From contig JANRJP010000102.1 in the NCBI GenBank assembly GCA_033763905.1, positions 24,863 through 88,862 of the forward strand: DNA of 64,000 nucleotides. Reading direction: 5' to 3'. This document shows positions 22,419 to 41,805 of this stretch, in pieces; the stretch's first letter is position 1; each line of letters opens with the position of its first letter. The notes beneath the pieces were generated by a model. That model was given only the letters and a program-made list of their open reading frames with translations. It ran no database searches and was not told where the DNA came from. The stretch comes from Gemmatimonadaceae bacterium. GTDB taxonomy: Bacteria > Gemmatimonadota > Gemmatimonadetes > Gemmatimonadales > Gemmatimonadaceae. A program made the translations under genes and the position numbers.

Positions 22419-23422
22419 GTCTCGACGCGCCGCCGCCGGGTCGCCACGAGTTCGCGGCGCCCGCCGAGGCGACGCGACTCGATCTGGCCGTCGCGGCACA
22501 GCTCGGCGTGTCGCGGACGCGCGCCGCCACCCTTATCGCCGAGGGGCGCGTCACGGTGAATGGCGCCCGTGAAAAGGCGAGTGTGCGGCCGGACGCCGGG
22601 GCGCGGATCGTGGTGGACGTCCCGCCGCCGGCGGGCCGACCCGTGGTGCCCGAGCAGATCCCGCTCGACGTGGTCTATGAGGACGACGACCTGCTGGTCG
22701 TGAACAAGGCGGCCGGAATGGTCGTGCATCCCGCGCCGGGCAACTGGACCGGGACGCTGGTGAACGCCCTGATGGGTCGGCCTGGGACATTGGAGGACGA
22801 CGCCGACACCCCGCCGGAGGCCGCCCGGGCCGGGCTGGTCCACCGGCTCGACAAGGAGACTTCCGGGCTCCTCCTGGTGGCCAAGTCGGAGGGCACCCAC
22901 CGCGCCCTCGCGCAGGATCTGGCGGCCCGGAAGATCGTTCGCCGGTACGCCGCGATGTCCTGGGGTCACGTGGACGGCGACCGTATCACGGTGAAGGCCC
23001 CCATTGGCCGGGACCCTCGTGACCGGAAGCGGATGGCGGTCGTTTCCGGGGGGAGGGAGGCGCACACCGACTTCGTGCGGATCGGGCGTCTCCCGCACAC
23101 GGACCTGCTGCGCGCGCACCTGCACACGGGGCGGACGCATCAGATCCGGGTGCATTTGGCATCGGTGGGGCATCCGGTGGTCGGGGACGACACCTACGGT
23201 GGCGGCGGCGGGCGGAAGCTCGTGGCACTGCCCCCGGGGCGGCACTTCCTGCACGCCGCGTGGCTCCGCTTCCGGCACCCGCGGTCGGGGGAGGCCATCG
23301 ATCTGCGGGCGCCCTTGCCGGCCGATCTGGTGACCTCACTCGCTGCGGCCGCCGAGATGCCCAACCTGCTCACCGAGGGCGATCCGCTGTCGTATCTTGG
23401 GTTTTACGCTGATGGGGGCTGA
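22415..23422 (+). CDS. rluD: RluA/RluD-family 23S rRNA pseudouridine synthase
   Basis: GTG 22415 (GTGA overlap) in the frame of ORF 21854..23422. S4-like N-terminus (RLDLAVAAQLGVSRTRAATLIAEGRVTVNG), catalytic HRLDKETSGLLLVAK, HQIRVHLA. Confidence 0.9.
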   Translation: MSLDAPPPGRHEFAAPAEATRLDLAVAAQLGVSRTRAATLIAEGRVTVNGAREKASVRPDAGARIVVDVPPPAGRPVVPEQIPLDVVYEDDDLLVVNKAAGMVVHPAPGNWTGTLVNALMGRPGTLEDDADTPPEAARAGLVHRLDKETSGLLLVAKSEGTHRALAQDLAARKIVRRYAAMSWGHVDGDRITVKAPIGRDPRDRKRMAVVSGGREAHTDFVRIGRLPHTDLLRAHLHTGRTHQIRVHLASVGHPVVGDDTYGGGGGRKLVALPPGRHFLHAAWLRFRHPRSGEAIDLRAPLPADLVTSLAAAAEMPNLLTEGDPLSYLGFYADGG

Positions 23423-23879
23423 CGTGGTCCCGGCGACGCAGGCCCGCTTGCTGCTCTTCGAGGTGCGGGGGCGTCGCTATGCCTGCGATCTGGCGTCGGT
23501 GCGCGAGATCGTGCCGTTCGGTGTGGTCACGCGGCTCCCGGGCGCTCCGGCGGCGGTGGTGGGCGTGAGCAACGTGCGCGGTCTCGTGGTAACGGTGGTC
23601 GATCTGGGCATTCGGCTCGCCGACGGCCCGGTGGATCGTGCGGAAGGGGCGGTCTTGTTGCTGGAGTACGGCGGCAAGGTGCTCGGCGCGGGGGTGGATG
23701 GGCTGCAGGATGTACTCGTGCCGGAGGATGGCATTCAGCCGCCGCCGGCCGACAGCGGGACCGGCGATACGTCCGGGTTGTTGTGTGGGCTGGTGCAGAC
23801 GAATGGCGGCGTGGCGGTCGTGCTCGACCCCGCGGCGCTCGTGAAGGAAACCCTAGTCGGGACGGGAGGCGACACGTGA
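23412..23879 (+). CDS. cheW: chemotaxis coupling protein CheW
   Basis: ORF 23397..23879 (TTG). Possible starts are TTG 23397, ATG 23412 and GTG 23424. The first two overlap the rluD 3' end (stop 23420-23422); the third lies 1 nt after it. CheW-domain pattern LLLFEVRGRRYACDLASVREIVP...VSNVRGLVVTVVDLG. Confidence 0.85.
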   Translation: MGADVVPATQARLLLFEVRGRRYACDLASVREIVPFGVVTRLPGAPAAVVGVSNVRGLVVTVVDLGIRLADGPVDRAEGAVLLLEYGGKVLGAGVDGLQDVLVPEDGIQPPPADSGTGDTSGLLCGLVQTNGGVAVVLDPAALVKETLVGTGGDT

Positions 23880-24238
23880 GCCAAACGGTGCTCATCTGTG
23901 ACGACGCGATCTTCATGCGGACGATGTTGGCCGACATTCTCACGAATGCCGGATTCGAAGTCGTCGGCGAAGCCGAGAGCGGCGTGCAGGCGGTGGAGAT
24001 GTATCGACGGCTGCGGCCGGACCTGGTGACGATGGACATCGTGATGCCGGATATGGGCGGCATCGACGCCGTCCGCGAGATCACGAAGTTCGATCCCGCC
24101 GCGAAGTGTCTGATGTGCTCGGCGATGGGCCAGCAGGCGCTGGTCGTCGAGGCGATTCAGGCCGGCGCGAAGGACTTCGTCGTCAAGCCGTTCCAGCCGA
24201 GTCGGGTGCTCGAAGCCGTCCAGCGCGTGCTGGGCTGA
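23876..24238 (+). CDS. cheY: single-domain response regulator CheY
   Basis: GTG 23876 (GTGA overlap). VLICDDAIFMR, phospho-acceptor context DLVTMDIVMPDMGG, KDFVVKPF. 120 aa. Confidence 0.92.
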   Translation: MSQTVLICDDAIFMRTMLADILTNAGFEVVGEAESGVQAVEMYRRLRPDLVTMDIVMPDMGGIDAVREITKFDPAAKCLMCSAMGQQALVVEAIQAGAKDFVVKPFQPSRVLEAVQRVLG

Positions 24239-24257
24239 CCCTCCGGAGCGTCCCAGC

Positions 24258-26162
24258 GTGGATCCCGCCAAGTACGCCGAACTCTTCCTCACGGAGAGTC
24301 GTGAGCAGCTCGTGCAGATCAACGAGCAGTTGCTCGCGCTGGAGCGTGCGCCGGAGGACACGTCGCCGGTGGCCGCCCTGTTTCGCGCGGTGCACTCGCT
24401 CAAGGGGATGTCGGCGACGATGGGCTTCAGTGCCGTCGCCTCGCTCGCGCACGAGTTGGAGACGCTGATGGACGGCGTACGGGCCGGCCAGGTGGCGGTG
24501 GAGCCCGTGGTGTCGTTGCTGTTCGAGGCGGCGGACGGGCTGGAGCGGGCCGTCGGCGCCGCCGTCGCGGGACGCGACGAGTTTCCCGACCGTGACGATC
24601 TGCTGGGTCGACTGCGGGCCGCCGCGCAGGGCACAACATCCGCGCCGGTCGCGTCGACCCCGGCGGCGGTCGCGCCGATGCGCCGCACCCCGGTGCGGTC
24701 GTCGGGCTCGGTGCCAATCACCCCCGGCGACGGGCGCACGATCAAGGTCACGCTCGAGGCCGACACCCCGTTGCGCGGCGTGCGGGCCTTCCTCGTCGTC
24801 CAGCGCGCTCGGGCACTCGGGGAGATCACTGCGGTATGGCCGCCGGTCGAGGCCCTGCAGGCCGAACAGTTCGACCGCGAGTTTTCGCTCAAGCTGATCA
24901 CCGGCGCTGCGCCCGACGCGATCGCAGCGGATCTGGCCAAGGCGGGGTACGTCGAGCGCGTGCTGGTGGATGTCGCGCCGGCGCCAGCGGCCAAGTCCGC
25001 GCCCGCGGCTGCAGCACCGGCCCCAACCGTGCGCTCGGTGCGCGTCGACACCCGTCGCCTCGACGCGTTGCTCAACCTCGTGGGCGAGCTGGTGATTGCG
25101 CGCGACCGCCTGACGCGCGTGGCCGCGCAGCGGCAGGATGCTGAACTGTCCGATGTGGTCGCGCAGACGGAACGCCTGATCGGCAACCTGCACGACGAGA
25201 TTCTGGCGAGCCGTTTGATTCCCGTCTGGCAGGTCTTCGATCGCTTCCCGCGCACCGTCCGCGATGCCGCGAAAGCGGTGGGCAAGGAGGTCGAGTTCGT
25301 CGTCGAGGGCAAGGAGATCGAACTGGACCGCTCGTTGCTGGAGGAGTTGGCGGATCCGGTCGTGCACCTCCTGCGCAATGCCGTCGATCACGGGCTGGAG
25401 TCCCCGGCGGACCGTCGTGCGGCCGGCAAGCCGGCCACCGGACGGTTGGTGCTGAGCGCGTCGCGTGACCGCTCGGCGGTGCTGGTGAAGGTCGAAGATG
25501 ACGGGCGCGGCATTGACCGTCGTCGCGTCATTGCCCGCGCCGCGGCGGAAGGCTTGGTCGAGGCCGACCGCACGGCCATCACCGACGACGAACTGGTGAA
25601 GCTGATTGCGCGGCCGGGGTTCTCGACGGCCGAGCGGGTCACCGGTCTGTCGGGGCGCGGCGTCGGCATCGACGCCGTGATCGCGAAAGTGCGCGGCCTT
25701 GGCGGTTCGGTCGAGATCCGCTCGGTGGAAGGGCGGGGCACGACGATCGAACTGCGTCTGCCGGTGACGCTGGCGATCGTCGGCGCGGTCCTCGCGCAGG
25801 TGGGCGACGAGCGATATGCCCTGCCGATGACGCACGTGCAGGAGACGGTGGAGCTCGCCGCGGCCCAGGCCGAGACGCTGCGCGGCCGCGAAGTGATGAC
25901 GCTGCGCGAAGACGTGCTGCCCTTGGTGCATCTGCGCGATGTGGTGCGGATGCCGCGGCGCGACGGCGGCGGCTCGCAGGTGGTGATCGTGGAGCGCGCC
26001 GAGCGGCGCGCGGGGTTGGTGGTGGACCGCTTGCTCGGTCAGCAGGACATCGTCGTCAAGCCACTCGACGCGGTGCGCAATGCCGCGGCGCTGTTCAGCG
26101 GAGCGACGATTCTCTCCGATGGCGCGCCGGCGCTGATTCTCGATGTCAACACGCTCCTCTGA
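24258..26162 (+). CDS. cheA: chemotaxis histidine kinase CheA (P1-P5)
   Basis: 634-aa ORF. Hpt site FRAVHSLKGMSATMGF, dimerisation VRVDTRRLDALLNLVGELVI, HATPase boxes HLLRNAVDHG, DDGRGID and GLSGRGVGIDAV, plus a C-terminal CheW-like P5. Confidence 0.95.
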   Translation: MDPAKYAELFLTESREQLVQINEQLLALERAPEDTSPVAALFRAVHSLKGMSATMGFSAVASLAHELETLMDGVRAGQVAVEPVVSLLFEAADGLERAVGAAVAGRDEFPDRDDLLGRLRAAAQGTTSAPVASTPAAVAPMRRTPVRSSGSVPITPGDGRTIKVTLEADTPLRGVRAFLVVQRARALGEITAVWPPVEALQAEQFDREFSLKLITGAAPDAIAADLAKAGYVERVLVDVAPAPAAKSAPAAAAPAPTVRSVRVDTRRLDALLNLVGELVIARDRLTRVAAQRQDAELSDVVAQTERLIGNLHDEILASRLIPVWQVFDRFPRTVRDAAKAVGKEVEFVVEGKEIELDRSLLEELADPVVHLLRNAVDHGLESPADRRAAGKPATGRLVLSASRDRSAVLVKVEDDGRGIDRRRVIARAAAEGLVEADRTAITDDELVKLIARPGFSTAERVTGLSGRGVGIDAVIAKVRGLGGSVEIRSVEGRGTTIELRLPVTLAIVGAVLAQVGDERYALPMTHVQETVELAAAQAETLRGREVMTLREDVLPLVHLRDVVRMPRRDGGGSQVVIVERAERRAGLVVDRLLGQQDIVVKPLDAVRNAAALFSGATILSDGAPALILDVNTLL

Positions 26163-26169
26163 GGGGTCG

Positions 26170-26793
26170 ATGGACGATACGACGCGATCACTGACTGCCG
26201 CCCAACTCGATGCGCTCCGCGAAGTCGCCAACATCGGCGCGGGGCACGCCGCGACGGCGCTGTCGCAGATGACGGGGCAGACGATCATGATCTCGGTGCC
26301 GCGGATCTTCATCGCGCCCCTCGAGGACGTCCCGCCGCACGTCAGCGGACCCGAGGAGCCGGTCGCCGCCGTCCTGATGCAGATGCTCGGCGACTTGACG
26401 GGACAGACCCTGCTCGTCTTCCCCGAGCCGACCGCGTTGCGACTGGCCGAGTTGATGCTGCGGCGGCCGCGCGGCAGTTCGCCCGGACTCGGCGAACTCG
26501 AGCAGTCGGCCATCAAGGAGGCCGGCAACATCCTGTCAGGGCAGTATATGAACGCGCTGTCCGACTTTATGGGGATGGTGCTGCTGCCGTCACCGCCCTC
26601 GATGGCGATCGATATGTCGGCGGCGGTGCTCGAGAGCACCTACCTGCAGTTCGGCAGTGATCGCGATATGGTCGTCTGCGTCGAGAGCGAGTTCATGATG
26701 AAGGAGCTGGGGGAAACCCTGCGAGGCTTCTTCCTGCTGCTCCCGGACGCACCCTCCCTGCAGGTGATGCTCAAGACGCTCAAGTTGGCCTGA
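26170..26793 (+). CDS. cheC: CheY-P phosphatase CheC
   Basis: ATG 26170 within ORF 26143..26793. Two ExxN active-site motifs (LREVANIGAGHAATALS and IKEAGNILSGQYMNALS), as in CheC-class proteins. Confidence 0.85.
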   Translation: MDDTTRSLTAAQLDALREVANIGAGHAATALSQMTGQTIMISVPRIFIAPLEDVPPHVSGPEEPVAAVLMQMLGDLTGQTLLVFPEPTALRLAELMLRRPRGSSPGLGELEQSAIKEAGNILSGQYMNALSDFMGMVLLPSPPSMAIDMSAAVLESTYLQFGSDRDMVVCVESEFMMKELGETLRGFFLLLPDAPSLQVMLKTLKLA

Positions 26794-26798
26794 CCGAC

Positions 26799-29540
26799 GT
26801 GTCCACCGCCGTGCCTGTCGCTCTCTCGTCCGCTCGCGATCGCGACGCGCTGCGCAGCTTTGCGCGGCGCATCGATCCGTCGGATGCGGGCGCGCACAAC
26901 AACCTCGGCGTCCTGTACTACAACAAGGGCCTGCACGAAGAGGCGGTGGCGGCGTTCACGCGCGCGCTCGAGCTCGACCCCAAGATGGAAGTGGCGCGTC
27001 GGAATCTCGAAGTCGCCTACTTCCGCACGGGCTATTTCGATCGGCGCGTGGGCGAACTGCGCGAGCGCCTGCGCGCCGTGCCGACCGATCGGGAATCGCG
27101 GTTCGAGCTGGGCCGCGCGCACGCCTTCGCGGGCCAGTATCCGCAGGCGGTCAGCGAGTTCAAGACGCTGCTGCAGCACTTTCCGGATGACCTGGCGGCG
27201 ATCCTGCAGCTGGCGCTGGCCGAGAAGAGCTCGGGCGATCTCGAAGATGCCGCGCGCTGGCTGGAGCAGGCCGCGCGACTCGACCCCGACAGCCCGCTGG
27301 TGCACTTCTATCGCGGCGAAGTCGCCTACAACCGCGGGCTCAATGAAGACGCCCTCGCGGCGCTGGAACGGGCGATCGCGCTGAATCCGGAGCTGGCCGA
27401 CGCGCACTACCTGATGGCCTTCGTGCTCGGCGACATCGGACGACACGACGACGCCCGCGGCGCCACCAAGCGCGCGATTCAACTGAATCCGTCGCTGTCG
27501 CGCGCGCAGGCGAATCTGTCGCTCGACAAGTACAACGCGGCGCGGTACGAGGAACTCCTGCCCGGCGCCGCCGAGCGCAAGTCGCAGCAGTTGATGGCGG
27601 TGTCCGAGGAGGGCCAGCTGGCGCACTACTCGCTGGGCATCGCGTACCGGCAAAAGGGGTACTGGGCCGACGCGCTGCGCGAGTACCGGATGGCGCTTGA
27701 TCGGGGCGAGGATCGCGACCTCGTCGAGCAGGCGATGGCCGAAGTGCATCTGCTGCAGCGCGATGTGTCGGGCGCCGTCGCGCTGTACGATGTGCTGATC
27801 GGCCGTCGGCCCGAATCGCCGAAGCTCTGGAACGAGCGGGGCGTCGCGCTGCATCAGGACGGCCGATTCGCCGAGGCGCTCGAGAGCTACGATCGCGCCG
27901 TGGCCGCGGATGACGCGTACGTGCTCGCGTGGAACAACCTCGGCGTGGCCCGCTACCACGCCAATGACGTCGACGGCGCGGTCGATGCCTTCCGGCGTGC
28001 CTTGGATGTGGCGCCCACCTTTGCGAAGTCGCGGCTCAACCTCGCGCTGCTGCTGTTCAAGGGCAAGCGACTGCAGTTGGCGCTGGAAGCGTATCGCAAG
28101 GTGATCGAGGCCGAGCCCGAAGAGCCCACCGCGTGGAACGGCATTGGCCTCGTGCTGGCCGAACTCAAGCGCTTCGAGGAAGCGCGGGCCGCGTTTGCCC
28201 GAGCAATCCAGGCGCGGCCGACGTATGCCGAGGCGCACTACAACCTCAGCTTTACACTGTCGAACCTCGGCGACTTCGAGGGCGCGTTGCGCGAAACCAA
28301 GCGCGCGCTCGAACTCGACCCGTACTACGTCGCGCAGAAGTTCGAGTTGTCGATCGACCTGCAGCACGAGGAGCCGGATCTCTCGATCGCGCCGGATCTG
28401 GGCGGGGAGAAGCGGGTCAGCGGTGCCGTGGACGATTTCGCCTTCGATCCGGCACTGCTCGACGCGGTGTTCACGCGGCTGAACACGCCGTCGAGCCAGC
28501 CGATGACCGCCGTCCCGTCGGGTGAAGGCGAGCCGCTCTCGTACGCGCTGGCACGCGACTACCTGTCGAAGCGACTCGGTGATCGCGCGGCCGCGGAAGC
28601 CACGCGCATCTTGGCGCGGGGTGGTGCACAGGCGGAAGGCCTCACGATCGTCGCCGACTCCTACGCGCAGCGCTCGGCCTACGGCGAGGCGGTGGAACGC
28701 TATCGCGAAGCGCTGCGCGCCGACCTCGAGTACGTGCCGGCGCTCCGTGGCTTGACGTCCTCGTTGATCGCGATGGGCCGCGGTGCGGATGCGCGCCCCG
28801 TGGCCGAGCAGCTGGCGCAGCGCGTCCCCGACGATGTCGACGCGCTGGTGCTGGTGGCCGAGACGCGTTCGGCCGCGGGTGATCGGGTCGCGGCGTTGGC
28901 TGCGCTCGACGGCGCGCGCCGCCGTGCGCCGGCCCGGGCCGACATTCACAAGCGTATCGGCGATGTGCTGGAAGCCTCGGGCGACACCGACGGGGCGCTG
29001 GCGGTCTTTCGACTGGCGACGCAACTCGAACCGAGCTTTGCCGCCGTGCGGACGAGCCTGGGCCGTCTGCTGGCCCTGCGTGGCGACCGCGACGCGGCGG
29101 CGAGCGAGTTTTGCGCGGCGCTGGAGGCGGTGCCGACGTATGGTGCCGCGGCGATCGGACTGGCCGGCGTCCGGCGCGGGCAAGGGCGTGATCGCGAGGC
29201 GATGGACGTGCTGATCGCGCTCCTCGAGACGGATCCCTCGCACCTCGGGGCGCTGGTCGCCCTGGGCGAACTGTTGCTCGCGCAGGGGCGGAGCGCCGAT
29301 GCCGCGTTTGCGTTCCGCCGCGTGCTGACGTTCGACCCGGCACATCCCGCCGCGCTGTTCTACTGGGGCTCGCTGCTGGCGGCGCAGCATCGCTGGCGCG
29401 AGGCCCGCGAGACCTGGTCGCGCGCGGCGGCCGTGAATCCGACGGGCGAATGGGGACAGCGCGCCGCGCGCGAAGCGCGCAGCGCCGAGGATTTAGCGCA
29501 CGTGTACGCGACGGCGGGAGGTGGCGTCGATGCCCATTGA
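26799..29540 (+). CDS. 913-aa tetratricopeptide-repeat protein
   Basis: GTG 26799. TPR consensus repeats run along the whole length (e.g. AHNNLGVLYYNKGLHEEAVAAFTRALELDP, AWNNLGVARYHANDVDGAVDAFRRALDVAP, AHYNLSFTLSNLGDFEGALRETKRALELDP). No TM segment or signal peptide. Confidence 0.85.
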   Translation: MSTAVPVALSSARDRDALRSFARRIDPSDAGAHNNLGVLYYNKGLHEEAVAAFTRALELDPKMEVARRNLEVAYFRTGYFDRRVGELRERLRAVPTDRESRFELGRAHAFAGQYPQAVSEFKTLLQHFPDDLAAILQLALAEKSSGDLEDAARWLEQAARLDPDSPLVHFYRGEVAYNRGLNEDALAALERAIALNPELADAHYLMAFVLGDIGRHDDARGATKRAIQLNPSLSRAQANLSLDKYNAARYEELLPGAAERKSQQLMAVSEEGQLAHYSLGIAYRQKGYWADALREYRMALDRGEDRDLVEQAMAEVHLLQRDVSGAVALYDVLIGRRPESPKLWNERGVALHQDGRFAEALESYDRAVAADDAYVLAWNNLGVARYHANDVDGAVDAFRRALDVAPTFAKSRLNLALLLFKGKRLQLALEAYRKVIEAEPEEPTAWNGIGLVLAELKRFEEARAAFARAIQARPTYAEAHYNLSFTLSNLGDFEGALRETKRALELDPYYVAQKFELSIDLQHEEPDLSIAPDLGGEKRVSGAVDDFAFDPALLDAVFTRLNTPSSQPMTAVPSGEGEPLSYALARDYLSKRLGDRAAAEATRILARGGAQAEGLTIVADSYAQRSAYGEAVERYREALRADLEYVPALRGLTSSLIAMGRGADARPVAEQLAQRVPDDVDALVLVAETRSAAGDRVAALAALDGARRRAPARADIHKRIGDVLEASGDTDGALAVFRLATQLEPSFAAVRTSLGRLLALRGDRDAAASEFCAALEAVPTYGAAAIGLAGVRRGQGRDREAMDVLIALLETDPSHLGALVALGELLLAQGRSADAAFAFRRVLTFDPAHPAALFYWGSLLAAQHRWREARETWSRAAAVNPTGEWGQRAAREARSAEDLAHVYATAGGGVDAH

Positions 29541-32321: not shown

Positions 32322-32924
32322 GTGTCCATCGTCAACTACGCAACGCGCGAAATCACCTGCAAGATCGTGTACTACGGACCGGGCCGGTCCGGGAAGACCA
32401 CGAATCTGCACTACATCTACCAGCAGGTGCCGTCCGATCGCAAAGGCACGATGGTCTCGCTGGCGACGCAGACCGACCGGACGCTGTTCTTCGACTTTCT
32501 CCCGCTCGACCTGGGCAGCATCTCGGGCTTCACCACGAAGTTCCAACTCTACACGGTGCCCGGGCAGGTGTACTACCAGACCACCCGCAAGCTGGTGCTG
32601 CAGGGGGCGGATGGCGTGGTCTTCGTCGCCGACTCGCAGCGGCGGCAGTTCGCCGAGACGGTCGAGTCGTTTCAGGACCTGCACGCGAACCTCGCGGAGC
32701 ACGGGCTCGATGCGCGGGCGGTGCCGCTGGTGATCCAGTACAACAAGCGCGATCTGCCGACCGAGCTCATTCATCCGGTGGCGGAGTTGCGCGACGCGAT
32801 CAACTTCCGCGACGTGCCCGATTTCGAAGCCGATGCCCTGCACGGCGTCGGGGTGTTCGAGACGCTGCGCGGCATCTCGGAGTTGGTGCTGCGCAAGCTC
32901 AGTACGGGGACGGATCGGCGATGA
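32322..32924 (+). CDS. mglA: Ras-like small GTPase MglA
   Basis: 200-aa ORF. MSIVNYATREITCKIVYYGPGRSGKTTNL (P-loop), TDRTLFFDFLPL, YTVPGQVYY, VFVADSQ, IQYNKRDLP. Near-colinear with M. xanthus MglA as I recall it. Confidence 0.93.
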   Translation: MSIVNYATREITCKIVYYGPGRSGKTTNLHYIYQQVPSDRKGTMVSLATQTDRTLFFDFLPLDLGSISGFTTKFQLYTVPGQVYYQTTRKLVLQGADGVVFVADSQRRQFAETVESFQDLHANLAEHGLDARAVPLVIQYNKRDLPTELIHPVAELRDAINFRDVPDFEADALHGVGVFETLRGISELVLRKLSTGTDRR

Positions 32925-34846: not shown

Positions 34847-36468
34847 TGGCGATCAAGGGCTCGCTCCGCGAAGCGTCGCTGCCGGACGTCTTGCAACTCC
34901 TGTCGATGGGCAAGAAGACGGGCTGCTTGAGCGTCTCGCACAAGAACAATTTCGGCTACATCTATTTCGACAAGGGACGCATCTCGTTCGCGGCGATCGT
35001 CAATCGTCGGGATCGGCTCGGTGACATCCTCGTCAAGAGCGGGGTGATCACGCACGAGCAGCTCGAAGAGACGATCGCGCTCCAGTCGAAGAGCCGCGAT
35101 ATGCGGCTGGGCGATCTGCTCGTCGAGCGCGGTCTGCTGAGTCGCGAAGCCTTGCACCAGCAGATCACCGTGCAGATCGAAGAGGCGGTGTACTTCCTCT
35201 TCACGTGGACGCAGGGGACGTTCTCGTTCGAGGCGGATGTGCTGCCCGATCTGCAGGACTTCCTCGTGTCGATCAATCCCGAGTCGCTGCTGCTCGAGGG
35301 CGCGCGCCGCGTCGACGAGTGGAGCGTCATCGAGAAGAAGATTCCGTCGTTCGACGTGGTGTTCGAGCTCGATCGGGCCAAGCTCGCCTTGGCGAACAAC
35401 GAACTGTCGGCGGAACAGAAGGCGATCGCGCAGCTGATCGACGGTCGGCGGGATGTGGCCGAGATCGTCGAAGAGTCGGGGATGATCGAGTTCGACGTGG
35501 GCAAGGCGATGTACGGCTTGCTCACGGCCGGCTTCCTGCATCGCGTGGGAAAGACCAAGCCGCAGCAGTCGGATCCGCAGAGCGAACAGAAACTGCAGGA
35601 GCACCGCAATCTCGGCATCGCGTTCTACCGGACGGCGATGTATGACGAAGCGCTCCGCGAGTTCCGCCGCGTGCACGAACTGCGGGTCGGCGATCCGGTG
35701 GGCCGGTTCTACACGGCGCTACTCTTCCTGCGACAGAACAAGACGCAGGAGGCCGTGAGCGTGCTCCAGGATCTCGCGCAACACGGCACGGCCAAGGCCT
35801 CGGTGTTCCACAACCTCTCGCTGGCGCTCGAGCGGCTCGGGCGCTCGGACGAGGCGCGGGCCGCGCTGCAGGAAGCGATGACCCGCGGCGGCGAGACCGA
35901 TGGGCTCGTGCATCTGTCGCGGGGGGTGTTGTTGCTCAAGGCGGGCGACCTGGCGGCCGCCGCCGCTGCGGTGGCAGAGGCGCGGCAGCACTTCGGGCGT
36001 CGGCCGCCGCCGGCGGTGTGGTTCCACTACGCCGGCCTGATCGATGCGCTTCGCGGTGACGTCGAGTCGGCCGAGACGGTGCTGCGCGAAGGGACCGAGG
36101 TGCATACGCACGCTGCCGTGCTCCATCTCAACCTCGCCGCAGTGCTCGAACGGCAAGGGAAGTACGAGCTCGCCTTGCAGTCGGCCGATCAGGCCGTGCT
36201 CGACGACCCGCAGCTCCCGCAGGCGCACAAGTCGCAGGGCGATCTCCACTACCGCGCGGGGCGCTTCGACGACGCGTGGGAGTCCTACAGCCGCGCCCTG
36301 CGGCTCGCGCCGGCGCTTGGCGCCGATTTGCACGTCAAGCTCGGCAATCTGCGGTTCAAGCGGCAGGAGACCCGCGATGCCGCCGCGCATTGGGAACGCG
36401 CGTTGCAGCTGGACCCGGAGAACGCGACCGCACGCGCGAATCTCGACGCGCTGGCCAAGGCCCGGTGA
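34846..36468 (+). CDS. PATAN (DUF4388) domain + TPR protein, copy 2
   Basis: ATG 34846 (TGATG junction) within ORF 34804..36468. MAIKGSLREASLPDVLQLLSMGKKTGCLSVSH...IYFDKGRISFA, RLGDILVKSGVITHEQLEETIALQ, EAVYFLFTWTQGTFSFE, then TPRs (e.g. AHKSQGDLHYRAGRFDDAWESYSRALRLAP). Confidence 0.8.
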   Translation: MAIKGSLREASLPDVLQLLSMGKKTGCLSVSHKNNFGYIYFDKGRISFAAIVNRRDRLGDILVKSGVITHEQLEETIALQSKSRDMRLGDLLVERGLLSREALHQQITVQIEEAVYFLFTWTQGTFSFEADVLPDLQDFLVSINPESLLLEGARRVDEWSVIEKKIPSFDVVFELDRAKLALANNELSAEQKAIAQLIDGRRDVAEIVEESGMIEFDVGKAMYGLLTAGFLHRVGKTKPQQSDPQSEQKLQEHRNLGIAFYRTAMYDEALREFRRVHELRVGDPVGRFYTALLFLRQNKTQEAVSVLQDLAQHGTAKASVFHNLSLALERLGRSDEARAALQEAMTRGGETDGLVHLSRGVLLLKAGDLAAAAAAVAEARQHFGRRPPPAVWFHYAGLIDALRGDVESAETVLREGTEVHTHAAVLHLNLAAVLERQGKYELALQSADQAVLDDPQLPQAHKSQGDLHYRAGRFDDAWESYSRALRLAPALGADLHVKLGNLRFKRQETRDAAAHWERALQLDPENATARANLDALAKAR

Positions 36469-37280
36469 GCCTCGTGACCGCCCACGACGACGGTTCGCTC
36501 GACGCCTTGGCGGCGAAGATCGCGCGAGATCGCGGCTTCGCGGCCGGCTACTACAAGGATACCTGTCTGCGGCGGCGCATCGCCGTGCGGATGCGCGCGA
36601 ATGGCGTGCACGACTATGCGCAGTACGCGGCGCTGCTCGACACCCGCGCCGATGAGTACGACAAGTTGCTCGACGCGCTGACGATCAACGTCACGCGGCT
36701 GTTCCGGAATCACGAGGCGTGGGAGGCGGTGGAGCGCCTCGTGTGGCCGTCGCTCTTCGCCGGCGTCGCGCCGGTGACGGTCTGGAGCGCGGGCTGCGCG
36801 ACCGGCGAAGAGCCCGTGACGATCGTGATGAGCGCGCTGGCGTCGGGCGCGACGCCGCGGTCGGCCGACCGGCTCGTGGTGCACGCGACGGACATCGATC
36901 CGCGCGCACTGGCGCGCGCGCGGGCCGGCGTGTTTCCGCACAGCGCGTTCGCCGAGACGCCGGGCGAGTGGCGCGATCGCTGGTTCACCGGCCCGGCCCG
37001 CGATACCGCCACGCCCGCGCTGCTTGCGCCGATTCGCTTCGCGCAGCGCGATCTGCTTCAGGATCCGCCGCCCGCGCGAGGGCTGCAGCTCGTGGTCTGC
37101 CGCAACGTGATGATCTACTTCGACCGCGAGCCGCAGGATCAGTTGCTGCGGACCTTCCACGATGCGCTCGCACCGGGAGGCTTCTTGCTGCTCGGCAAGG
37201 TGGAGTCGCTGCTCGGCCCCGCGCGTGCGCTGTTCGAGGTGGTCGACTCTCGCGAACGGCTGTTCCGGAGGGCGGCGTGA
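36465..37280 (+). CDS. cheR: chemotaxis protein methyltransferase CheR
   Basis: GTG 36465 (GTGA overlap) in the frame of ORF 36276..37280. YKDTCLRRRIAVRM, TRLFRNHEAW, SAM-binding VWSAGCATGEEP, VCRNVMIYFD. Confidence 0.9.
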   Translation: MSLVTAHDDGSLDALAAKIARDRGFAAGYYKDTCLRRRIAVRMRANGVHDYAQYAALLDTRADEYDKLLDALTINVTRLFRNHEAWEAVERLVWPSLFAGVAPVTVWSAGCATGEEPVTIVMSALASGATPRSADRLVVHATDIDPRALARARAGVFPHSAFAETPGEWRDRWFTGPARDTATPALLAPIRFAQRDLLQDPPPARGLQLVVCRNVMIYFDREPQDQLLRTFHDALAPGGFLLLGKVESLLGPARALFEVVDSRERLFRRAA

Positions 37281-37771
37281 CGGTGACCGACTCGCTCACG
37301 GTGACCGTCCGCGTGGCCGATGCCGCCGCCGCCCGTGCCGATGTCACCCTGGTGACGCTGGGGCTGGGTTCCTGCGTCGCGGTGCTGTTGCACAATCCGG
37401 TCGTCGGGGCCGGTGCGCTGGCGCATATCCTGCTGCCGGATGAGTCGCTGTCCCGCGACACCTCGAATCCGGCGAAGTTCGCGACGACGGCCATCCCGCT
37501 GATTCTCGACCGGATGGCGAGTTACGGGCCGCTCCGGGACGTGACGGCAAAGCTCGTGGGCGGGGCGCGGATGTTCGCGCAGCTGCTTCCCCAGGGCGGC
37601 GTCAATATGGGCGAGCGGAATCTGGTGGCGGCGCGGCAGACCCTGCGCGGCGCCGGCATTCCGATCGCCGCAGAAGACACCGGCGGCGAGTACGGGCGCA
37701 GCGTGTATTTCCACGTCGGCACCGGCCGGGTCACGGTGCGGTCGATCAAGGCCGGTGAGCGCACCCTCTAG
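37277..37771 (+). CDS. cheD: chemoreceptor glutamine deamidase CheD
   Basis: GTG 37277 (GTGA overlap) in the frame of ORF 36719..37771. Catalytic context TLGLGSCVAVLLH and LAHILLP, plus GERNLVAARQTLRGAGIPI. Confidence 0.88.
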   Translation: MTVTDSLTVTVRVADAAAARADVTLVTLGLGSCVAVLLHNPVVGAGALAHILLPDESLSRDTSNPAKFATTAIPLILDRMASYGPLRDVTAKLVGGARMFAQLLPQGGVNMGERNLVAARQTLRGAGIPIAAEDTGGEYGRSVYFHVGTGRVTVRSIKAGERTL

Positions 37772-38828
37772 CGCCGCGCGCACCGTGCTCGTCGTCGACG
37801 ACTCCGCGTTTATGCGCAAGGTCGTCAGCGATCTCGTGGGCGCGTTGCCGGGCTTTCGGGTGATCGGCACGGCGCGAGACGGGCAACACGCGCTGGAGCA
37901 GGTGCACACGCTCGACCCCGACATCGTCACCCTCGATGTCGAGATGCCGGAGCTCGACGGGCTGCAGGCGTTGGGGTACATCATGAGCGAGACCCCGCGG
38001 CCGGTCGTGATGCTGTCGGCGGCCGACGGGGCCGATGGCGCGCTCACGCTGCGCGCGCTCGAACTCGGTGCCGTCGATTTCGTCCGCAAGCCGTCCGGCG
38101 CGATCTCGCTGGATCTCACACGCGTGCAGGATCGGCTGCATCAGGCATTGCTGGCCGCGGCCGAGGCGAATGTGGCGGGCGTGCGAGCCGTGGCTCGCTT
38201 GCCCCGGGTCTCGGCGGGCGTCGGCCTGTCGCCGCATACGGCGCGCAAGCTCGTCGTGATTGCGTGCTCGACCGGGGGGCCGCGGGCGCTGGTCGAGGTC
38301 ATTCCGGCGCTGCCGGTGACGCTCGATGCTGCGGTGCTGGTCGTGCAGCATATGCCCAAGGGCTTCACGCGCTCCCTCGCGGAGCGCCTCGATCACGCGA
38401 GTCGCTGTACCGTGCGTGAGGCCGCAGACGGCGCCGCCCTGCAGCGCGGGCTCGTGTATGTCGCCCCGGGCGGGCGGCATCTGGTGGTGGGCGAGCGTCC
38501 CGAGGGGCCCTGCTGCTCGATCGACGACTCGCCGCCGGTCTGGGGGGTGCGACCGGCCGCCGACGTCCTCTTTCGGAGCGCCGCCCGGGCTTACGGCGCG
38601 TCGGTCGTCGGCGTGGTGCTCACCGGGATGGGGCGGGACGGTGCCGAAGGCTTGTCGCGCATCCGCGAGGCGGGCGGCCGCGCCATCGTGCAAGACCGCG
38701 AAACAAGCACGATCTACGGAATGCCCCAGGCGGCGTTGCAGATTGCCGGCGCCGATCAGGTCGTGCCGTTGAGCGGCGTCGCGACGGCGATTCGCGAACT
38801 GGTGGCCACTGTGCCGGAGGCGGCGTGA
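37755..38828 (+). CDS. cheB: protein-glutamate methylesterase/response regulator CheB
   Basis: 357-aa ORF. Receiver VLVVDDSAFMRK...DIVTLDVEMPELDG. Esterase motifs IACSTGGPRAL, VVQHMPKGFT and TGMGRDGAEG. Confidence 0.93.
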   Translation: MSAPSSAARTVLVVDDSAFMRKVVSDLVGALPGFRVIGTARDGQHALEQVHTLDPDIVTLDVEMPELDGLQALGYIMSETPRPVVMLSAADGADGALTLRALELGAVDFVRKPSGAISLDLTRVQDRLHQALLAAAEANVAGVRAVARLPRVSAGVGLSPHTARKLVVIACSTGGPRALVEVIPALPVTLDAAVLVVQHMPKGFTRSLAERLDHASRCTVREAADGAALQRGLVYVAPGGRHLVVGERPEGPCCSIDDSPPVWGVRPAADVLFRSAARAYGASVVGVVLTGMGRDGAEGLSRIREAGGRAIVQDRETSTIYGMPQAALQIAGADQVVPLSGVATAIRELVATVPEAA

Positions 38829-39427
38829 GCACCCCGCGTCCACCGGAGGCGATCCCGATGCGGATGCCGACGCCAACGCAGTTGGCGGCGATCCTCAATC
38901 CCGATGCACCGCCCGCGCCGCCGCCGGCCATCCTCGAACCCGAGTTGCCCCCCGTCGCGCGCGCGCCGCTCAAGTCGTTACGGGCCCGCTTGGCCGATCG
39001 GGAGTCGGTGCCGATGCTCGTGCTGGAGGCGGGCAGCGAGCGGTACGTGGCGTCGCTGGCCGACGTGCTCGAAGCCGTCGACGCACCCGACATCCATCCG
39101 CTCCCGCGGATGTCCGGCGCGACCCGTGGGGTGCTACCGCTGCGCGGCGCCCTCGTGACGGTCCTCGATCCGTCTCGGGTGCTCGGGCACCCCGCCGTCC
39201 GTGGCGACGCGGCGCTCGTCGTGTCGCACGCCGGCGGCCGCTTGGCCGTGCTGGTCGACGACGTCCTCGATGCGATGACCTTGGAGCCCTCCGCCGTACG
39301 CACCGTGCCCTCGGCGCTCGCCGCCGACCGGGTGTTGATTGGCGCCGTCCCGCACGACGGTCGCCTCGCCGGCATTCTTGATCTGGCGGCGTTGCTCGAC
39401 GCCGCCCTTGCCCTCGCTGACCGATGA
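38825..39427 (+). CDS. CheW-like domain protein with Pro/Ala-rich N-terminal extension
   Basis: 200-aa ORF (GTGA overlap). About 60 aa of low-complexity P/A-rich sequence, then MLVLEAGSERYVASLADVLEAVD...VLPLRGALVTVLDPSRVLG, which is typical of CheW folds. Confidence 0.75.
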   Translation: MSTPRPPEAIPMRMPTPTQLAAILNPDAPPAPPPAILEPELPPVARAPLKSLRARLADRESVPMLVLEAGSERYVASLADVLEAVDAPDIHPLPRMSGATRGVLPLRGALVTVLDPSRVLGHPAVRGDAALVVSHAGGRLAVLVDDVLDAMTLEPSAVRTVPSALAADRVLIGAVPHDGRLAGILDLAALLDAALALADR

Positions 39428-39942
39428 CCGCCGCTCCGCACCATCAGCAACTCGTGGCCTTCCGGCTCGGGAATGACCAGTTCGCTGCCGACGTCTTCAG
39501 CGTCGAGCGGGTGCTGCGCTACGTGCCACCGCGCGCGATCCCCAATGTGCCGGCCTGGATCGCGGGAGTGGTCGACTATCAGCAGCGGGTCGTGCCGGTG
39601 ATCGATCTGCGGGCCCGCTTCGAGCTGCCGCCCGTTCCGCCGAAACCCGAGACTCGCATCCTCGTGCTGCACGTCGATGGGGAGTGGATTGGCGCCATCG
39701 TCGATGCCGTCACCGAAGTCGCGAGCGTCGAGGCCGGGGCCGTCCAGCCACCGCCCCCGCTGTTCCGCGGGCTGTCGGCCGCCTTCCTCAAGGGCGTCGT
39801 CCGTCGCGGCGACGCGCTGATCGTGGTGCTCGACACCGCGCGCCTGCTGTCGACCACCGAACGCCTGGTGCTCGAGCAGGCGGGCAGTGCGCCGAGTCGT
39901 GAGACCGATCTTCCCACCGCTGGAGCACCAGCCGATGCCTGA
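39424..39942 (+). CDS. cheW: chemotaxis coupling protein CheW
   Basis: 172-aa ORF (ATGA overlap). QLVAFRLGNDQFAADVFSVERVLRYVPP...IAGVVDYQQRVVPVIDLRARF...ILVLHVDGEWIGAIVDAVTEV. Confidence 0.85.
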   Translation: MTAAPHHQQLVAFRLGNDQFAADVFSVERVLRYVPPRAIPNVPAWIAGVVDYQQRVVPVIDLRARFELPPVPPKPETRILVLHVDGEWIGAIVDAVTEVASVEAGAVQPPPPLFRGLSAAFLKGVVRRGDALIVVLDTARLLSTTERLVLEQAGSAPSRETDLPTAGAPADA

Positions 39943-40786
39943 CTCCCGTTCCCTCAGCTTCAAGGATCGCTACGCCGCGATCGACGCACGGCTCGACGCC
40001 GGGCTCGCCGCGAGCGAGCGCGACGCGACCAAGGCCGAGATCATCGCGCTGTTCAAGCAGGTCGAACAGGAGATCACCGACCTGAGCGCCCTCAAGGACC
40101 AGATCAAGGCCCTCGTCGACAAGTGGAAGGCGGCGGCGCCGTCGATGGCCCCGCAGTTCACGGGCGAAAAGCCGGTCGTCCATCAGGATCACATCGGGGC
40201 GTCGACCTTCATCGAGAAGGGCTGGAGCCGCATCTCGCTGGGCGACTATCCTGCCGCCGAGGAAGCCCTCGTGAAGGCGCTGGAGCTCTCGCCGAACGAG
40301 ACCCAGGCGACGTCGCTGCTGGGCTGGGCGCAGATGCTGCAGGAGAAGTACGACGACGCCCTGATGAACTTCCAGAAGGTGCTGATCAAGGAGCCGGCGA
40401 ACTCCTTGGCACGGATCAACGTCGGCTACATCTGCCTCAAGAAGCGGATTTTTGGGGAGGCCATCGAGCATCTCTCGCGCGCGATCCGGCTCGACAACGA
40501 CAAGAAGGCCACGCTCTACGCGCACTTCTATCTCGGGCTGGTGTATCTGGAACGGGAGATGTCGGAGGACGCGATCACCTTCTTCCGCAAGACGCTGGCG
40601 CTCGGGCCGAATCTGCTCGAGGCCTACTACGAACTGGGGCGCGCCTACTGGCAGTTGGGCGACCGGGCGCAGGGGTTGCAGGCGTGGAAGGACGGCTTCG
40701 CGGCGAACAAGTTCAATCCGTGGGGCAAGAAGTGCGGCGAACTCGTGAAGGTGGTCGAGGCGGGCGGGGAACCGTCGATCGCGTGA
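39935..40786 (+). CDS. coiled-coil + TPR protein
   Basis: ATG 39935 within ORF 39887..40786, with an 8-nt overlap with cheW. TPRs such as ATSLLGWAQMLQEKYDDALMNFQKVLIKEP and AYYELGRAYWQLGDRAQGLQAWKDGF. Noticeably more Lys/Ile/Asn-rich than its neighbours. Confidence 0.8.
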   Translation: MPDSRSLSFKDRYAAIDARLDAGLAASERDATKAEIIALFKQVEQEITDLSALKDQIKALVDKWKAAAPSMAPQFTGEKPVVHQDHIGASTFIEKGWSRISLGDYPAAEEALVKALELSPNETQATSLLGWAQMLQEKYDDALMNFQKVLIKEPANSLARINVGYICLKKRIFGEAIEHLSRAIRLDNDKKATLYAHFYLGLVYLEREMSEDAITFFRKTLALGPNLLEAYYELGRAYWQLGDRAQGLQAWKDGFAANKFNPWGKKCGELVKVVEAGGEPSIA

Positions 40787-41805
40787 CGCGGTGGGCGCGG
40801 CGCGCGCTGACGTCGCTCGCCGCAGGCGTGACGCTCCTCGCCTCGGCCTCGGCGGCGGCGCTCGGCGCGCAGGATGCCGGCGCAACGCGCCTCGATGGGG
40901 GGCGCTTCTCGGTGTACGCCTACCCGCAGGACGCCGCGCTGGCCCGCGCGGTGCTCGAGGCGGCCCGCACGCGTGACACGTTTCCCGGCCTGCCCAGGCC
41001 CACGCGACGCGTGGTGATTGCGATCGCGCCCGACGCGCGTCGCTTTCGGGAGTGGGTCGGCCCCTCCGCGCCGGAGTGGGGAAGTGCCATCGCGTTTCCC
41101 GACGAGCAGCGGACGGTGCTCCACGGGCGATCGGCGTCCAGCGATGCCGGCGATCCGATCCGCGTCCTGCGCCACGAGCTGGCGCACTTGGCGTTGCACG
41201 AAGCGCTGCCCGACGCCGAGATCCCGCGGTGGTTCGACGAGGGGTATGCGAGCCTCGTCGCCGGTGAATGGGGGCGCGACGAATTGATCGCGTTGCAGCT
41301 CGCGCTGGCGGCGCGGCGCGGGGGGAGTCTGGCGGCGCTGGATTCGGCCTTCACCGGTGGGGCCGTACGCGCCGAAGCGGCCTACGCCCTAGCGACGCGG
41401 GCCGTCATCGATCTCGCCGCGCTGGATCCCGCGCGCGGGCTGGCGCTGCTGTTCGATTACTGGCGGAGCGACCGGCGCCTGGATGTGGCGGTGCGCCACG
41501 CCTACGGCATCACGCTGTCCGGCTTCGAAGTGCAATGGGCGGAACGGACGCGGCGACGGTACGGCGCGCTGGCCATTGCCTCGGATCTCGGGTTGGCGGG
41601 CATCGTCCTGTTGCTCGTCCTGGGGCCGCTATGGTGGGCACGGCGGCGCCGGGACCGGCGGCGCCTCGCGGCGATGGCCGCCGCCGACGCGGCAGCCGAG
41701 GCCCGGGCGCGGGCGCAGGCGCTGGAGGCCCTGCTGGCGCTCGGCGCGCCCCCTCCCGCCGACGGCGCACCCCCAGTGCCTCCACCAAGCGAAGGGACGC
41801 GCTAG
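40783..41805 (+). CDS. HExxH zinc-metallopeptidase-like protein, secreted domain with C-terminal membrane anchor
   Basis: GTG 40783 (GTGA overlap) in the frame of ORF 40123..41805. Signal peptide V-TRWARRALTSLAAGVTLLASASAAALGAQDA. LRHELAHLALHE, then FDEGYAS about 18 residues later. TM helix LGLAGIVLLLVLGPLWW followed by RRRRDRRR and an Ala/Pro-rich tail. Confidence 0.65.
   Translation: MTRWARRALTSLAAGVTLLASASAAALGAQDAGATRLDGGRFSVYAYPQDAALARAVLEAARTRDTFPGLPRPTRRVVIAIAPDARRFREWVGPSAPEWGSAIAFPDEQRTVLHGRSASSDAGDPIRVLRHELAHLALHEALPDAEIPRWFDEGYASLVAGEWGRDELIALQLALAARRGGSLAALDSAFTGGAVRAEAAYALATRAVIDLAALDPARGLALLFDYWRSDRRLDVAVRHAYGITLSGFEVQWAERTRRRYGALAIASDLGLAGIVLLLVLGPLWWARRRRDRRRLAAMAAADAAAEARARAQALEALLALGAPPPADGAPPVPPPSEGTR

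Follow-up and report, generated by a model that had tools for sequence, protein, structure and literature searches.

A conserved Gemmatimonadota gene block that interleaves chemotaxis genes with an MglA GTPase module and a tandem DnaA-type AAA+ protein

Introduction

Contig JANRJP010000102.1 of a Gemmatimonadaceae bacterium (assembly GCA_033763905.1) contains, within the 64,000-nucleotide stretch analyzed here (the window), a run of 19 genes in which chemotaxis (Che) genes stand on either side of an MglA/MglB-type polarity GTPase module that also encodes a tandem DnaA-type AAA+ ATPase. The locus raises the question of whether the chemosensory pathway, the GTPase switch and the ATPase are wired to one another, or are neighbors in a densely packed and rarely rearranged part of the chromosome. 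We find that the block is real and, across the phylum, strongly conserved; to our knowledge it is undescribed, and we class it as a version of the theme in which Che signaling controls MglA. Our favored interpretation, to which we assign a probability of roughly 60%, is a Gemmatimonadota-wide signaling operon in which CheY, with its phosphatase CheC, and cyclic di-GMP (c-di-GMP) would be wired to a Group-1 MglA switch, with tetratricopeptide repeat (TPR) effectors steering a polar machine.

Conservation of the block

The genes are numbered 1 to 19 in their order along the plus strand, from cheW (1) to a gene for an HExxH protein (19), and all coordinates rest on inferred start codons. Relatives were collected in a genome scan that took one genome per species and used the family-specific linker of the AAA+ protein as query, a narrow alignment; the 278 genomes confirmed are a lower bound, the search patterns are clade-biased, and the taxonomy of the relatives is that of their metagenome-assembled genome (MAG) labels. 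The best 80 of the 278 genomes are all Gemmatimonadota, with the exception of two contigs that look mis-binned. These two (L007 and L065) are labeled Acidimicrobiia and Solirubrobacterales and bear the Gemmatimonadota block; L065 is identical in length and match coordinates to a Gemmatimonadales contig (L068), and L007 and L065 are probably mis-binned MAG contigs. When the AAA+ family was sought outside the phylum, with a profile and with a 31%-identical member as queries, the only names obtained were Gemmatimonadota, again with clade-biased patterns. A preliminary description of this DNA, made from the letters alone, had guessed a Gemmatimonadota source, correctly.

That description had also proposed comparing gene neighborhoods. 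The whole block, not just sub-blocks of it, keeps its gene order in the genomes of more than 80 Gemmatimonadota species, where it always sits between rluD and the dcw cluster. Its placement between a divIVA/ileS/rluD side and the dcw cluster is conserved in the relatives too, in which a gene for a periplasmic TPR protein lies downstream of the block, ahead of rsmH and the dcw genes. In a tblastn search with the window proteins, the block is colinear and on one strand in 42 of 42 long loci, each from a different species. Among loci with full flanks (n = 42), colinear matches were obtained in 39-44 cases for cheY, cheA, cheC, the 913-residue TPR protein, the first PATAN-TPR protein, the TPR-Roadblock fusion and the single-domain Roadblock protein, and likewise for mglB, mglA, the AAA+ gene, the second PATAN-TPR protein, cheD, the 283-residue TPR protein and the HExxH gene. 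The overlapping junctions described below are present in relatives as well. Identity to the AAA+ protein of the window is 78% in L002, 48% in L001, 42% in L003, approximately 41% in L085 and 31% in L084. Median identities over the 42 loci are 86% for CheY, 70% for MglA, 63.5% for the 283-residue TPR protein, 47% for CheA and 41% for the AAA+ protein. No other protein of the block is as well conserved as CheY, which is still 74% identical in L084; this degree of conservation fits a hub with many partners.

Several lineages have shed parts of the Che set. Members of a Gemmatimonas-like clade (L047, L056, L057, L079 and L082) have neither cheB nor the two distal cheW genes; in L028 and L032, cheR is missing on top of these losses; in L029 and L044, only the two distal cheW genes are missing. 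L084 has lost cheW, cheA, cheR, cheD, cheB and both distal cheW genes. Its cheY and cheC genes lie directly upstream of the TPR/PATAN/Roadblock/MglB/MglA/AAA+/PATAN/TPR/HExxH/small-ORF (open reading frame) series, at the same chromosomal site. The kinase and adaptation genes are thus dispensable in L084, L028, L032 and L082, and the conserved unit is not the whole Che pathway: CheY, CheC, the Mgl module and the AAA+ protein form the invariant part, and the kinase and adaptation genes a removable shell. The retention of CheY and CheC with the Mgl core when the other Che genes are gone argues for phosphorylated CheY (CheY~P) as the input of the GTPase module rather than a bystander, and it is the strongest argument that we can offer for such a role of CheY~P.

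The same comparisons bear on a rival account, in which an F1-type flagellar chemotaxis operon and an MglA/PATAN polarity operon are independent neighbors that became frozen together in a region that rarely rearranges. Synteny without gaps spans the entire region from ileS/rluD as far as the dcw genes, the Che proteins score best with Thermotoga and haloarchaeal family models, types that serve flagellar or archaellar control, and Gemmatimonas has flagellar genes, all as this account would have it. The two gene sets, however, are not adjacent but nested. As the preliminary description had recognized, the Che set comes in two halves around the Mgl core, split by a 9.7-kb stretch of non-Che genes, and this interleaving, found in every locus, supports the wiring of Che to MglA. 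The borders between the two sets are tight, with a 4-nt overlap between gene 12 and cheR and a 5-nt gap between cheC and gene 5. In addition, cheY and cheC stay with the Mgl core where other Che genes are lost, and several lineages have shed cheB, cheR or cheW with the rest undisturbed. We regard independent neighbors as an unlikely explanation.

A further possibility is that the GTPase, the AAA+ protein and the TPR/PATAN scaffolds form a positioning system that puts a Che array or a flagellum at the pole. ParC/ParP systems, which are encoded inside the che operons of polar flagellates, provide a functional analog. NTPase and scaffold genes inside a che operon, three CheW paralogs, one of them with a Pro-rich extension, and an F1-like Che set would all suit such a role. 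L084, however, keeps the GTPase, AAA+ protein and scaffolds without cheA or cheW and so has no array to place in cis; the block holds no ParA/ParP-like protein, and the known roles of MglA concern the polarity of motility machines, not arrays. A positioning system would be a long shot.

Finally, weak matches to PADLOC models and nSTAND Pfam families might suggest an island for anti-phage defense or STAND-like NTPases with incidental TPR proteins. These matches cover the P-loop only or TPR repeats only, with nothing beyond these generic elements, the composition of the block is like that of the rest of the window, and the block is inherited vertically at one chromosomal site across the phylum. 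The PADLOC output is noise, and we rejected a defense island, whose probability we put close to nil.

MglA and its Roadblock and TPR proteins

The GTPase of the block is encoded by mglA (gene 10; 32322-32924), a Ras-like protein that matches the Myxococcus xanthus MglA structures with E 3e-74. Group-1 MglA proteins are recognized by an intrinsic Arg finger beside the conserved G2 Thr, a TVPGQ sequence in G3 and a coupled MglB gene (PMC4316618). The window protein carries the G3 motif TVPGQ in place of DxxGQ ('LYTVPGQ'), and its intrinsic Arg is found in 'TDRTLFFDF', where TQTDRTLFFDFLP aligns to R53-T54 of M. xanthus MglA. With an mglB-like gene next to it, the protein has all three Group-1 features and, judged by sequence, is a Group-1-type GTPase.

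Three Roadblock-family proteins are encoded upstream of mglA. Gene 7 (30671-31510) is a fusion of TPR repeats and a Roadblock/LC7 domain (Pfam TPR and Robl_LC7), with weak matches in the Protein Data Bank (PDB) to Roadblock proteins and MglB. Gene 8 (31507-31851) encodes a single Roadblock/LC7 domain (Pfam Robl_LC7; PDB 7yh1_D, E 3e-7). Gene 9 (31848-32318) is MglB-like; its best PDB match is M. xanthus MglB, with a phmmer E of 3e-4 over approximately 95 residues. The domains predicted in the preliminary description agree with Pfam for 18 of the 19 proteins, and gene 9, which has no Pfam match, is the one left out, although its ortholog in L085 matches Robl_LC7 weakly. Gene 9 is always immediately upstream of mglA and ends 3 nt before it in the window; its product is presumed to be the GTPase-activating protein (GAP) of MglA.

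Two more TPR proteins belong to the block. Gene 5 (26799-29540) encodes a 913-residue protein with multiple repeats (Pfam TPR families) that is found in 41 of 42 loci and, by analogy to SgmX, may serve MglA as an effector or a scaffold. Gene 18 (39935-40786) encodes the 283-residue protein, in which a coiled-coil N-terminus precedes the TPR repeats (Pfam); it is kept in L084. The last of the 19 genes (gene 19; 40783-41805) encodes a protein of the Peptidase_MA_2 family (Pfam, E 1e-11) with the sequence HELAH (residues 131-135) and two hydrophobic segments. The first of these (9-29) corresponds to a signal or anchor at the N-terminus, and the second (260-290) to a C-terminal transmembrane (TM) helix that is followed by an Arg-rich tail.

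PATAN-TPR proteins and a predicted c-di-GMP-binding motif

Genes 6 (29521-30678) and 12 (34846-36468) encode proteins with a PATAN domain (DUF4388) and TPR repeats. The Pfam DUF4388 match of gene 6 has E 5e-33. Against PF14332 (PatA_N), the two proteins score 114 and 120 bits (cutoff 25), and the match is interrupted or stretched by an insertion. It is in this helical insertion of the PATAN domain that both also match NCBIfam NF053729 ('cyclic di-GMP-binding, MshE-related'), with 47.6 bits for gene 6 and 51.8 bits for gene 12 (cutoff 38). The MshEN motif consists of two tandem 24-residue RLGxx(L/V/I)(L/V/I)xxG(L/V/I)(L/V/I)xxxxLxxxLxxQ sequences (PMC5013675). The gene 12 insertion (residues 57-110) contains a near-canonical MshEN_N double motif, RLGDILVKSGVITHEQLEETIALQ followed by RLGDLLVERGLLSREALHQQITVQ, and in the gene 6 insertion (residues 62-116) the second MshEN_N-like motif is intact. 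The double motif is conserved across orthologs. Compared with solved domains, gene 12 matches Thermus thermophilus PilF (6f8l) with E 3e-12 and Vibrio cholerae MshE (5htl) with E 2.5e-6, and the double motif is homologous to the c-di-GMP-binding domains whose structures have been solved for PilF, MshE and PilB. A single-sequence AlphaFold2 (AF2) model of the PATAN domain with its insertion has a predicted local distance difference test score (pLDDT) of 45.6 and is not usable.

Relative to the MshE, PilB and PilF ATPases, the same two tandem 24-residue motifs recur here in a different setting: MshEN is N-terminal in secretion and pilus ATPases and here lies inside a PATAN domain, and the spacer between the motifs is 6-7 residues rather than 5. 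No publication that we found treats the helical insertion of PATAN as MshEN_N. For Gemmatimonas aurantiaca, 8 GGDEF, 5 GGDEF+EAL, 2 EAL and 7 HD-GYP proteins have been tabulated, with no PilZ and 2 MshEN proteins (PMC5013675 Suppl. Table 5). Given so many c-di-GMP enzymes and so few known receptors, the PATAN-TPR proteins may be major c-di-GMP receptors in the phylum. The block thereby suggests an entry for c-di-GMP into the MglA switch, by way of an MshEN motif concealed within the 'helical insertion' of PATAN.

The tandem DnaA-type AAA+ protein

Gene 11 (32921-34846) encodes a 641-residue AAA+ ATPase with two Bac_DnaA matches in Pfam and matches to DnaA domain III in the PDB. What the preliminary description had entered as '2x DnaA-like AAA+' is this one gene with its two modules. 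The layout is an AAA+ module, a disordered stretch, a conserved helical domain (254-360) and a second AAA+ module, with a conserved C-terminal tail (EKxVWxWP..RLIEELR). The N-terminal module aligns to domain III of Bacillus subtilis DnaA with E 6e-49. Among 28 orthologs, both modules show little or no variation at the residues of Walker A, Walker B, the Arg finger and sensor II. In the window's own clade, the second module (34250-34700) has D-G at Walker B and Ala in place of the sensor-II Arg, compared with D-D and Arg in most orthologs, and may have undergone a lineage-specific loss of hydrolysis in that module. Among side observations, two giant proteins, P0163 and P0169 (1876 and 1990 residues), contain one DnaA-like AAA+ module at approximately 185-406 that is 37-39% identical to gene 11.

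The AF2 model of gene 11 (pLDDT 82.6) shows two confident AAA+ modules, in each of which strands 2 and 3 are separated by two helices that form the initiator-type insertion. Residues 225-254 are disordered, the helical domain at 254-360 is confident, and a further disordered segment precedes the conserved C-terminal helix. In Foldseek, the modules match domain III of B. subtilis DnaA (8bv3) with a target-normalized TM-score of 0.94. Matches of the full model to p97-type proteins have a root-mean-square deviation of ~20 Å and were discarded as meaningless.

DnaA domains I and IV are absent from gene 11: Pfam detects only Bac_DnaA and generic AAA families, the PDB alignments end with domain III, and the N-terminus starts 6 residues ahead of domain III. 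Both gene 11 modules share the domain-III fold and motifs with DnaA and Hda. The tandem arrangement, the family-specific helical linker and the C-terminal tail set the protein apart from both, and its gene adjoins mglA, not an origin region, and was found only in Gemmatimonadota in the genome scan. A genuine DnaA is ruled out by the tandem architecture and by the absence of domains I and IV. Hda is also ruled out, as the protein is a tandem and not a single short module, and scores 169.8 bits on the Hda model (cutoff 194.8); inspection by eye of the N-terminus revealed no QL[SD]LF-like clamp-binding motif. Automated annotation is nevertheless easily misled, for gene 11 scores 433 bits on the DnaA equivalog TIGR00362, well above the cutoff of 343.9, and family members are labeled 'chromosomal replication initiator protein DnaA' by JGI. 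This poses a risk of systematic mis-annotation for Gemmatimonadota genomes and for the prediction of origins.

The kinship with DnaA raises the prospect that the block regulates polarity in the cell cycle or division, with the DnaA-derived ATPase contacting DnaA or the nucleoid and coupling signals to replication, the division site or budding. The conserved place between divIVA and the dcw cluster, the closeness of the N-terminal module to domain III of a replication initiator and the occasional budding reported in Gemmatimonas lend themselves to this idea. So does the C-terminal module, which keeps an 'RSQEE' stretch that we take to align with the basic motif of Escherichia coli DnaA for contacts with single-stranded DNA. 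Still, the position may be historical only, as the flanking housekeeping genes are equally conserved; gene 11 has neither the DNA-binding domain IV nor domain I; there is no division gene within the block, and the dcw cluster is set apart from it by a tRNA gene and a gene for a periplasmic TPR protein. We give this idea little credence, and a link between the block and budding is pure speculation.

A related but more specific proposal is that gene 11 is a new type of small-GTPase partner. An ATPase of the initiator clade, devoid of origin recognition, could form ATP-dependent open filaments, or hetero-oligomers with DnaA, that couple the CheY/c-di-GMP/MglA switch to replication or pole identity, for example in asymmetric division or budding. 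We consider this rather improbable; if true, gene 11 would be the first initiator-type AAA+ protein drawn into a bacterial G-protein signaling pathway.

Chemotaxis genes and a distant receptor

CheA, CheW, CheY, CheR and CheB are all encoded in the block, with Pfam scores above cutoff. The upstream half opens with cheW (1) (23412-23879; Pfam CheW, E 6e-28), for which TTG at 23397 and GTG at 23424 are alternative starts, followed by cheY (23876-24238; Response_reg, E 1e-30), a single-domain receiver with residues D9, D10, D54, S82 and K104. The cheA product (24258-26162) has the Pfam order Hpt, P2, dimerization, HATPase and CheW with no fused receiver, and cheC (26143-26793; CheC/CheX) encodes a member of the CheY~P phosphatase family. 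In the downstream half, cheR (36465-37280; CheR_N and CheR), cheD (37277-37771; CheD) and cheB (37755-38828; receiver and methylesterase domains) are followed by cheW (2) (38825-39427; CheW), whose product has the Pro-rich N-terminal extension, and cheW (3) (39424-39942; CheW, E 3e-33). The best NCBIfam models are CheA_Halo for CheA, CheC_Thtogales for CheC and CheD_Thtga for CheD. The Che proteins thus look F1-like (Thermotoga/Firmicute/archaeal type), with all scores below the equivalog cutoffs.

The preliminary description called this Che pathway complete, which does not hold in cis, because no gene for a methyl-accepting chemotaxis protein (MCP; PF00015) is present among the 19 genes. PF00015 is also absent from the called genes of L001-L003, L084 and L085. 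The sole receptor of the 64-kb window is an orphan transmembrane MCP on the minus strand (7158-9209; 4HB-HAMP-HAMP-MCPsignal; Pfam MCPsignal, E 3e-35; hairpin motif), 14 kb from the block and unlinked to it, which is a possible input. The best model for its signaling domain is Aer2-type, far below cutoff, and a DJ-1/PfpI gene (9245-9817) adjoins it.

Junctions and borders

The G+C content of the window is 69% (range 67-73%). All 19 plus-strand ORFs are present where they were first placed, and each has a codon-position G+C pattern typical of coding sequence (GC3 0.81-0.92; GC2 0.39-0.60). The nine GTGA or ATGA junctions, the TGATG at 34844-34848 and the other junctions that had been listed read in the sequence as claimed, and the largest gap inside the run is indeed 19 nt, between cheY and cheA. 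Overlaps had been counted at 14 of the 18 junctions; they are real, but number 15 of 18 with the starts chosen here, since a 20-nt overlap between cheA and cheC had been overlooked.

The notion of a discrete 19-gene operon fared less well. Rather than starting at cheW, the gap-free run continues upstream, where the stop of rluD overlaps the cheW start by 11 nt. The order yggS-divIVA-phosphorylase-ileS-dksA-type zinc finger-lspA-lspA-rluD (15579-23422, plus strand) leads with 4-nt overlaps straight into cheW, so that the run of overlapping junctions reaches 8 kb into housekeeping genes, as far as yggS at 15579. The closest upstream non-coding gap of more than 50 nt lies at approximately 15468-15579, after ftsH. 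The dcw genes 3' of the block are equally tightly packed. Tight packing is a trait of the whole region, not of the block alone, and is accordingly weaker evidence for a discrete operon of 19 genes. Outside the system, the immediate upstream neighbor is the rluD-like pseudouridine synthase gene (22415-23422, plus strand; Pfam S4 and PseudoU_synth_2), which has the same place in L001-L003, L084 and L085. Two tandem genes for signal peptidase II (lspA; 21439-21906 and 21903-22418, plus strand) precede it with a 4-nt overlap; the distant relative L084 has one.

The 3' end of the block is well defined; the 5' end is not. A 20th gene, absent from the original list, begins at the 10th nucleotide after the end of the HExxH gene (41815-41988) and encodes a conserved two-TM protein of 58 residues with the motif AGY..G..AA.LLV.GYCVL.P. 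Of 85 related loci, 61 have a tblastn match to it right behind the HExxH gene, and a gene of 57-61 residues is called at this position in L002, L084 and L085. Beyond it, RNA folding of 41980-42070 (z-score -2.8) places a GC-rich, terminator-like hairpin of 9 bp, followed by a moderately U-rich tract, at 42008-42034 on the plus strand. This hairpin is not listed by a consensus terminator scan, in which terminator-like matches are no more frequent than expected from shuffled sequence; a consensus scan for sigma-70-like promoters found none, and both kinds of consensus are uninformative for this phylum. The conserved 3' border is tRNA-Val(TAC) (42124-42197, plus strand; Rfam, 75 bits; ARAGORN), which all 8 of the relatives checked have in the same position (for example, 19548-19621 in L001, 19199-19272 in L002 and 15572-15646 in L084). 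Most relatives also have tRNA-Asp(GTC) directly before rsmH; none was found in the window.

Proposed mechanism

In the favored interpretation, receptors encoded elsewhere would control CheA/CheW. As is established for these protein families, CheA would phosphorylate the one CheY, CheC with CheD would reset it, and CheR, CheB and CheD would adapt the receptors. CheY~P could then dock on the PATAN-TPR/Roadblock scaffold and alter the access of the MglB-like GAP to MglA, and hence the amount or the pole of MglA-GTP; FrzX and FrzZ act on MglB, RomR and MglC in Myxococcus, which is the analogy behind this step. Binding of c-di-GMP to the MshEN-type four-helix insertion of the PATAN domain, as its motif suggests, would gate the same scaffold. 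MglA-GTP would recruit the long TPR proteins as SgmX-like effectors, and these would direct a polar machine, most likely the motor of type IV pili, which we infer to be the output.

Precedents exist for several of these connections. Frz acts on MglA/MglB in M. xanthus (PMC4316618), where MglA-GTP recruits the 14-TPR protein SgmX, and thereby PilB, to the pole, and unstudied PATAN proteins are genomically linked to SgmX (PMC11580455). PATAN-REC (receiver) regulators are described as binding PilB1 in Synechocystis in work cited in PMC9090330. Genes for type IV pili and genes for flagella are both present in Gemmatimonas genomes (PMC7844134).

The tandem AAA+ protein would most likely form an open oligomer in an ATP-dependent manner and provide a platform for assembly of the complex, or a timer. 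This proposal, the weakest step of the scheme, stems from the ATP-binding and Arg-finger residues and the two-helix insertion of the initiator type, which both modules keep. The membrane HExxH protein and the two-TM peptide might anchor or process an envelope component, which is speculative.

Several considerations weigh against this scheme. Packing and synteny reach the housekeeping neighbors and the dcw cluster, so adjacency is weaker evidence of coupling than in most genomes. No pil gene, RomR/RomX homolog or MCP was found in the block, F1-type Che sets usually drive flagella or archaella, and the target of CheY could simply be FliM. The first MshEN_N-like motif of gene 6 is degenerate: its Arg is replaced by Pro, and Lys occupies a position that is otherwise hydrophobic. 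Finally, the inter-domain geometry of the gene 11 model is unreliable, with a predicted TM-score (pTM) of 0.47, and the role given to this protein is a guess.

Comparison with known systems

The preliminary description knew of no characterized system with this composition, and none was found in the literature searched, a limited corpus with few subscription journals. Full-text searches of this corpus for Gemmatimonas or Gemmatimonadota together with MglA, Roadblock, DUF4388 or chemosensory topics gave nothing relevant. What is tabulated there for G. aurantiaca is PATAN-MglA adjacency only (PMC4316618, Table S2): GAU_1115 is entered as 'MglB>MglA>' and GAU_1409 as 'PATAN>MglA>-PATAN>', with no mention of Che or AAA+ genes, and the two entries suggest either a second, paralogous MglA-PATAN locus in the genus or two scorings of the same block type. 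In the same survey, Wuichet and Sogaard-Andersen report that the neighborhoods of Group-1 mglA genes vary, with occasional PATAN genes, and that mglA is not near its Frz/RomR partners in Myxococcus or Bdellovibrio (PMC4316618). Besides known module types (Che, MglA/MglB, PATAN, MshEN and TPR), the block includes a partner without precedent in the tandem DnaA-type AAA+ protein.

The F1-class sets of B. subtilis and Thermotoga (CheA, W, Y, C, D, R and B) comprise the same enzymes, including CheC and CheD; the Che proteins of the block differ in scoring below the equivalog cutoffs and in being split by the 9.7-kb insert. Actinobacterial conservons (CvnA-D) are likewise operons in which phosphorelay-type signaling proteins are encoded together with a Roadblock protein and a GTPase of the MglA family, but their GTPase is of Group 2, they use a membrane histidine kinase and CvnC, and they are without Che, PATAN, TPR or AAA+ components. 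In cyanobacterial PATAN-REC systems (PatA, PixG, PixE and PilG-type; Tax/Pix), PATAN acts downstream of Che-like signaling to set the direction of type IV pilus activity. There PATAN is fused to a receiver, whereas here it is fused to TPR repeats, CheY is separate, and MglA/MglB and the AAA+ protein are additional.

The closest parallel is with Frz and MglA/MglB/RomR-RomX/MglC of M. xanthus. Common to both are a Che-type pathway, a Group-1 MglA with the TVPGQ and intrinsic Arg signature, a Roadblock-family GAP and extra Roadblock proteins; the three Roadblock-family proteins before mglA recall MglB and MglC, and TPR effectors are plausible here by analogy to SgmX. The block differs in lacking an FrzE-type CheA-CheY fusion, the FrzZ dual receiver, the CheR-TPR protein FrzF and an in-operon cytoplasmic MCP such as FrzCD, and an ortholog of Frz is ruled out on this architecture (CheA without receiver, CheR without TPR, no dual REC, no MCP). 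Nor is RomR or RomX recognizable in the block. Conversely, CheC, CheD, the two PATAN-MshEN_N-TPR proteins, the tandem DnaA-type AAA+ protein and the membrane HExxH protein are extras relative to Frz.

The arrangement of the genes differs as well, as frz and mglBA are separate loci in Myxococcus (PMC4316618) and are interleaved in one block here. The route from Frz to MglA was resolved slowly in Myxococcus because the genes are scattered; in Gemmatimonadota, the wiring appears to be written in one conserved block. This block names candidate connectors, namely the PATAN-TPR proteins, the extra Roadblock proteins, the TPR effectors and the DnaA-type ATPase, and points to CheY and CheC as the part that is inseparable from the GTPase. 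Cultivable Gemmatimonas species make direct tests of this version of the Che-controls-MglA theme possible.

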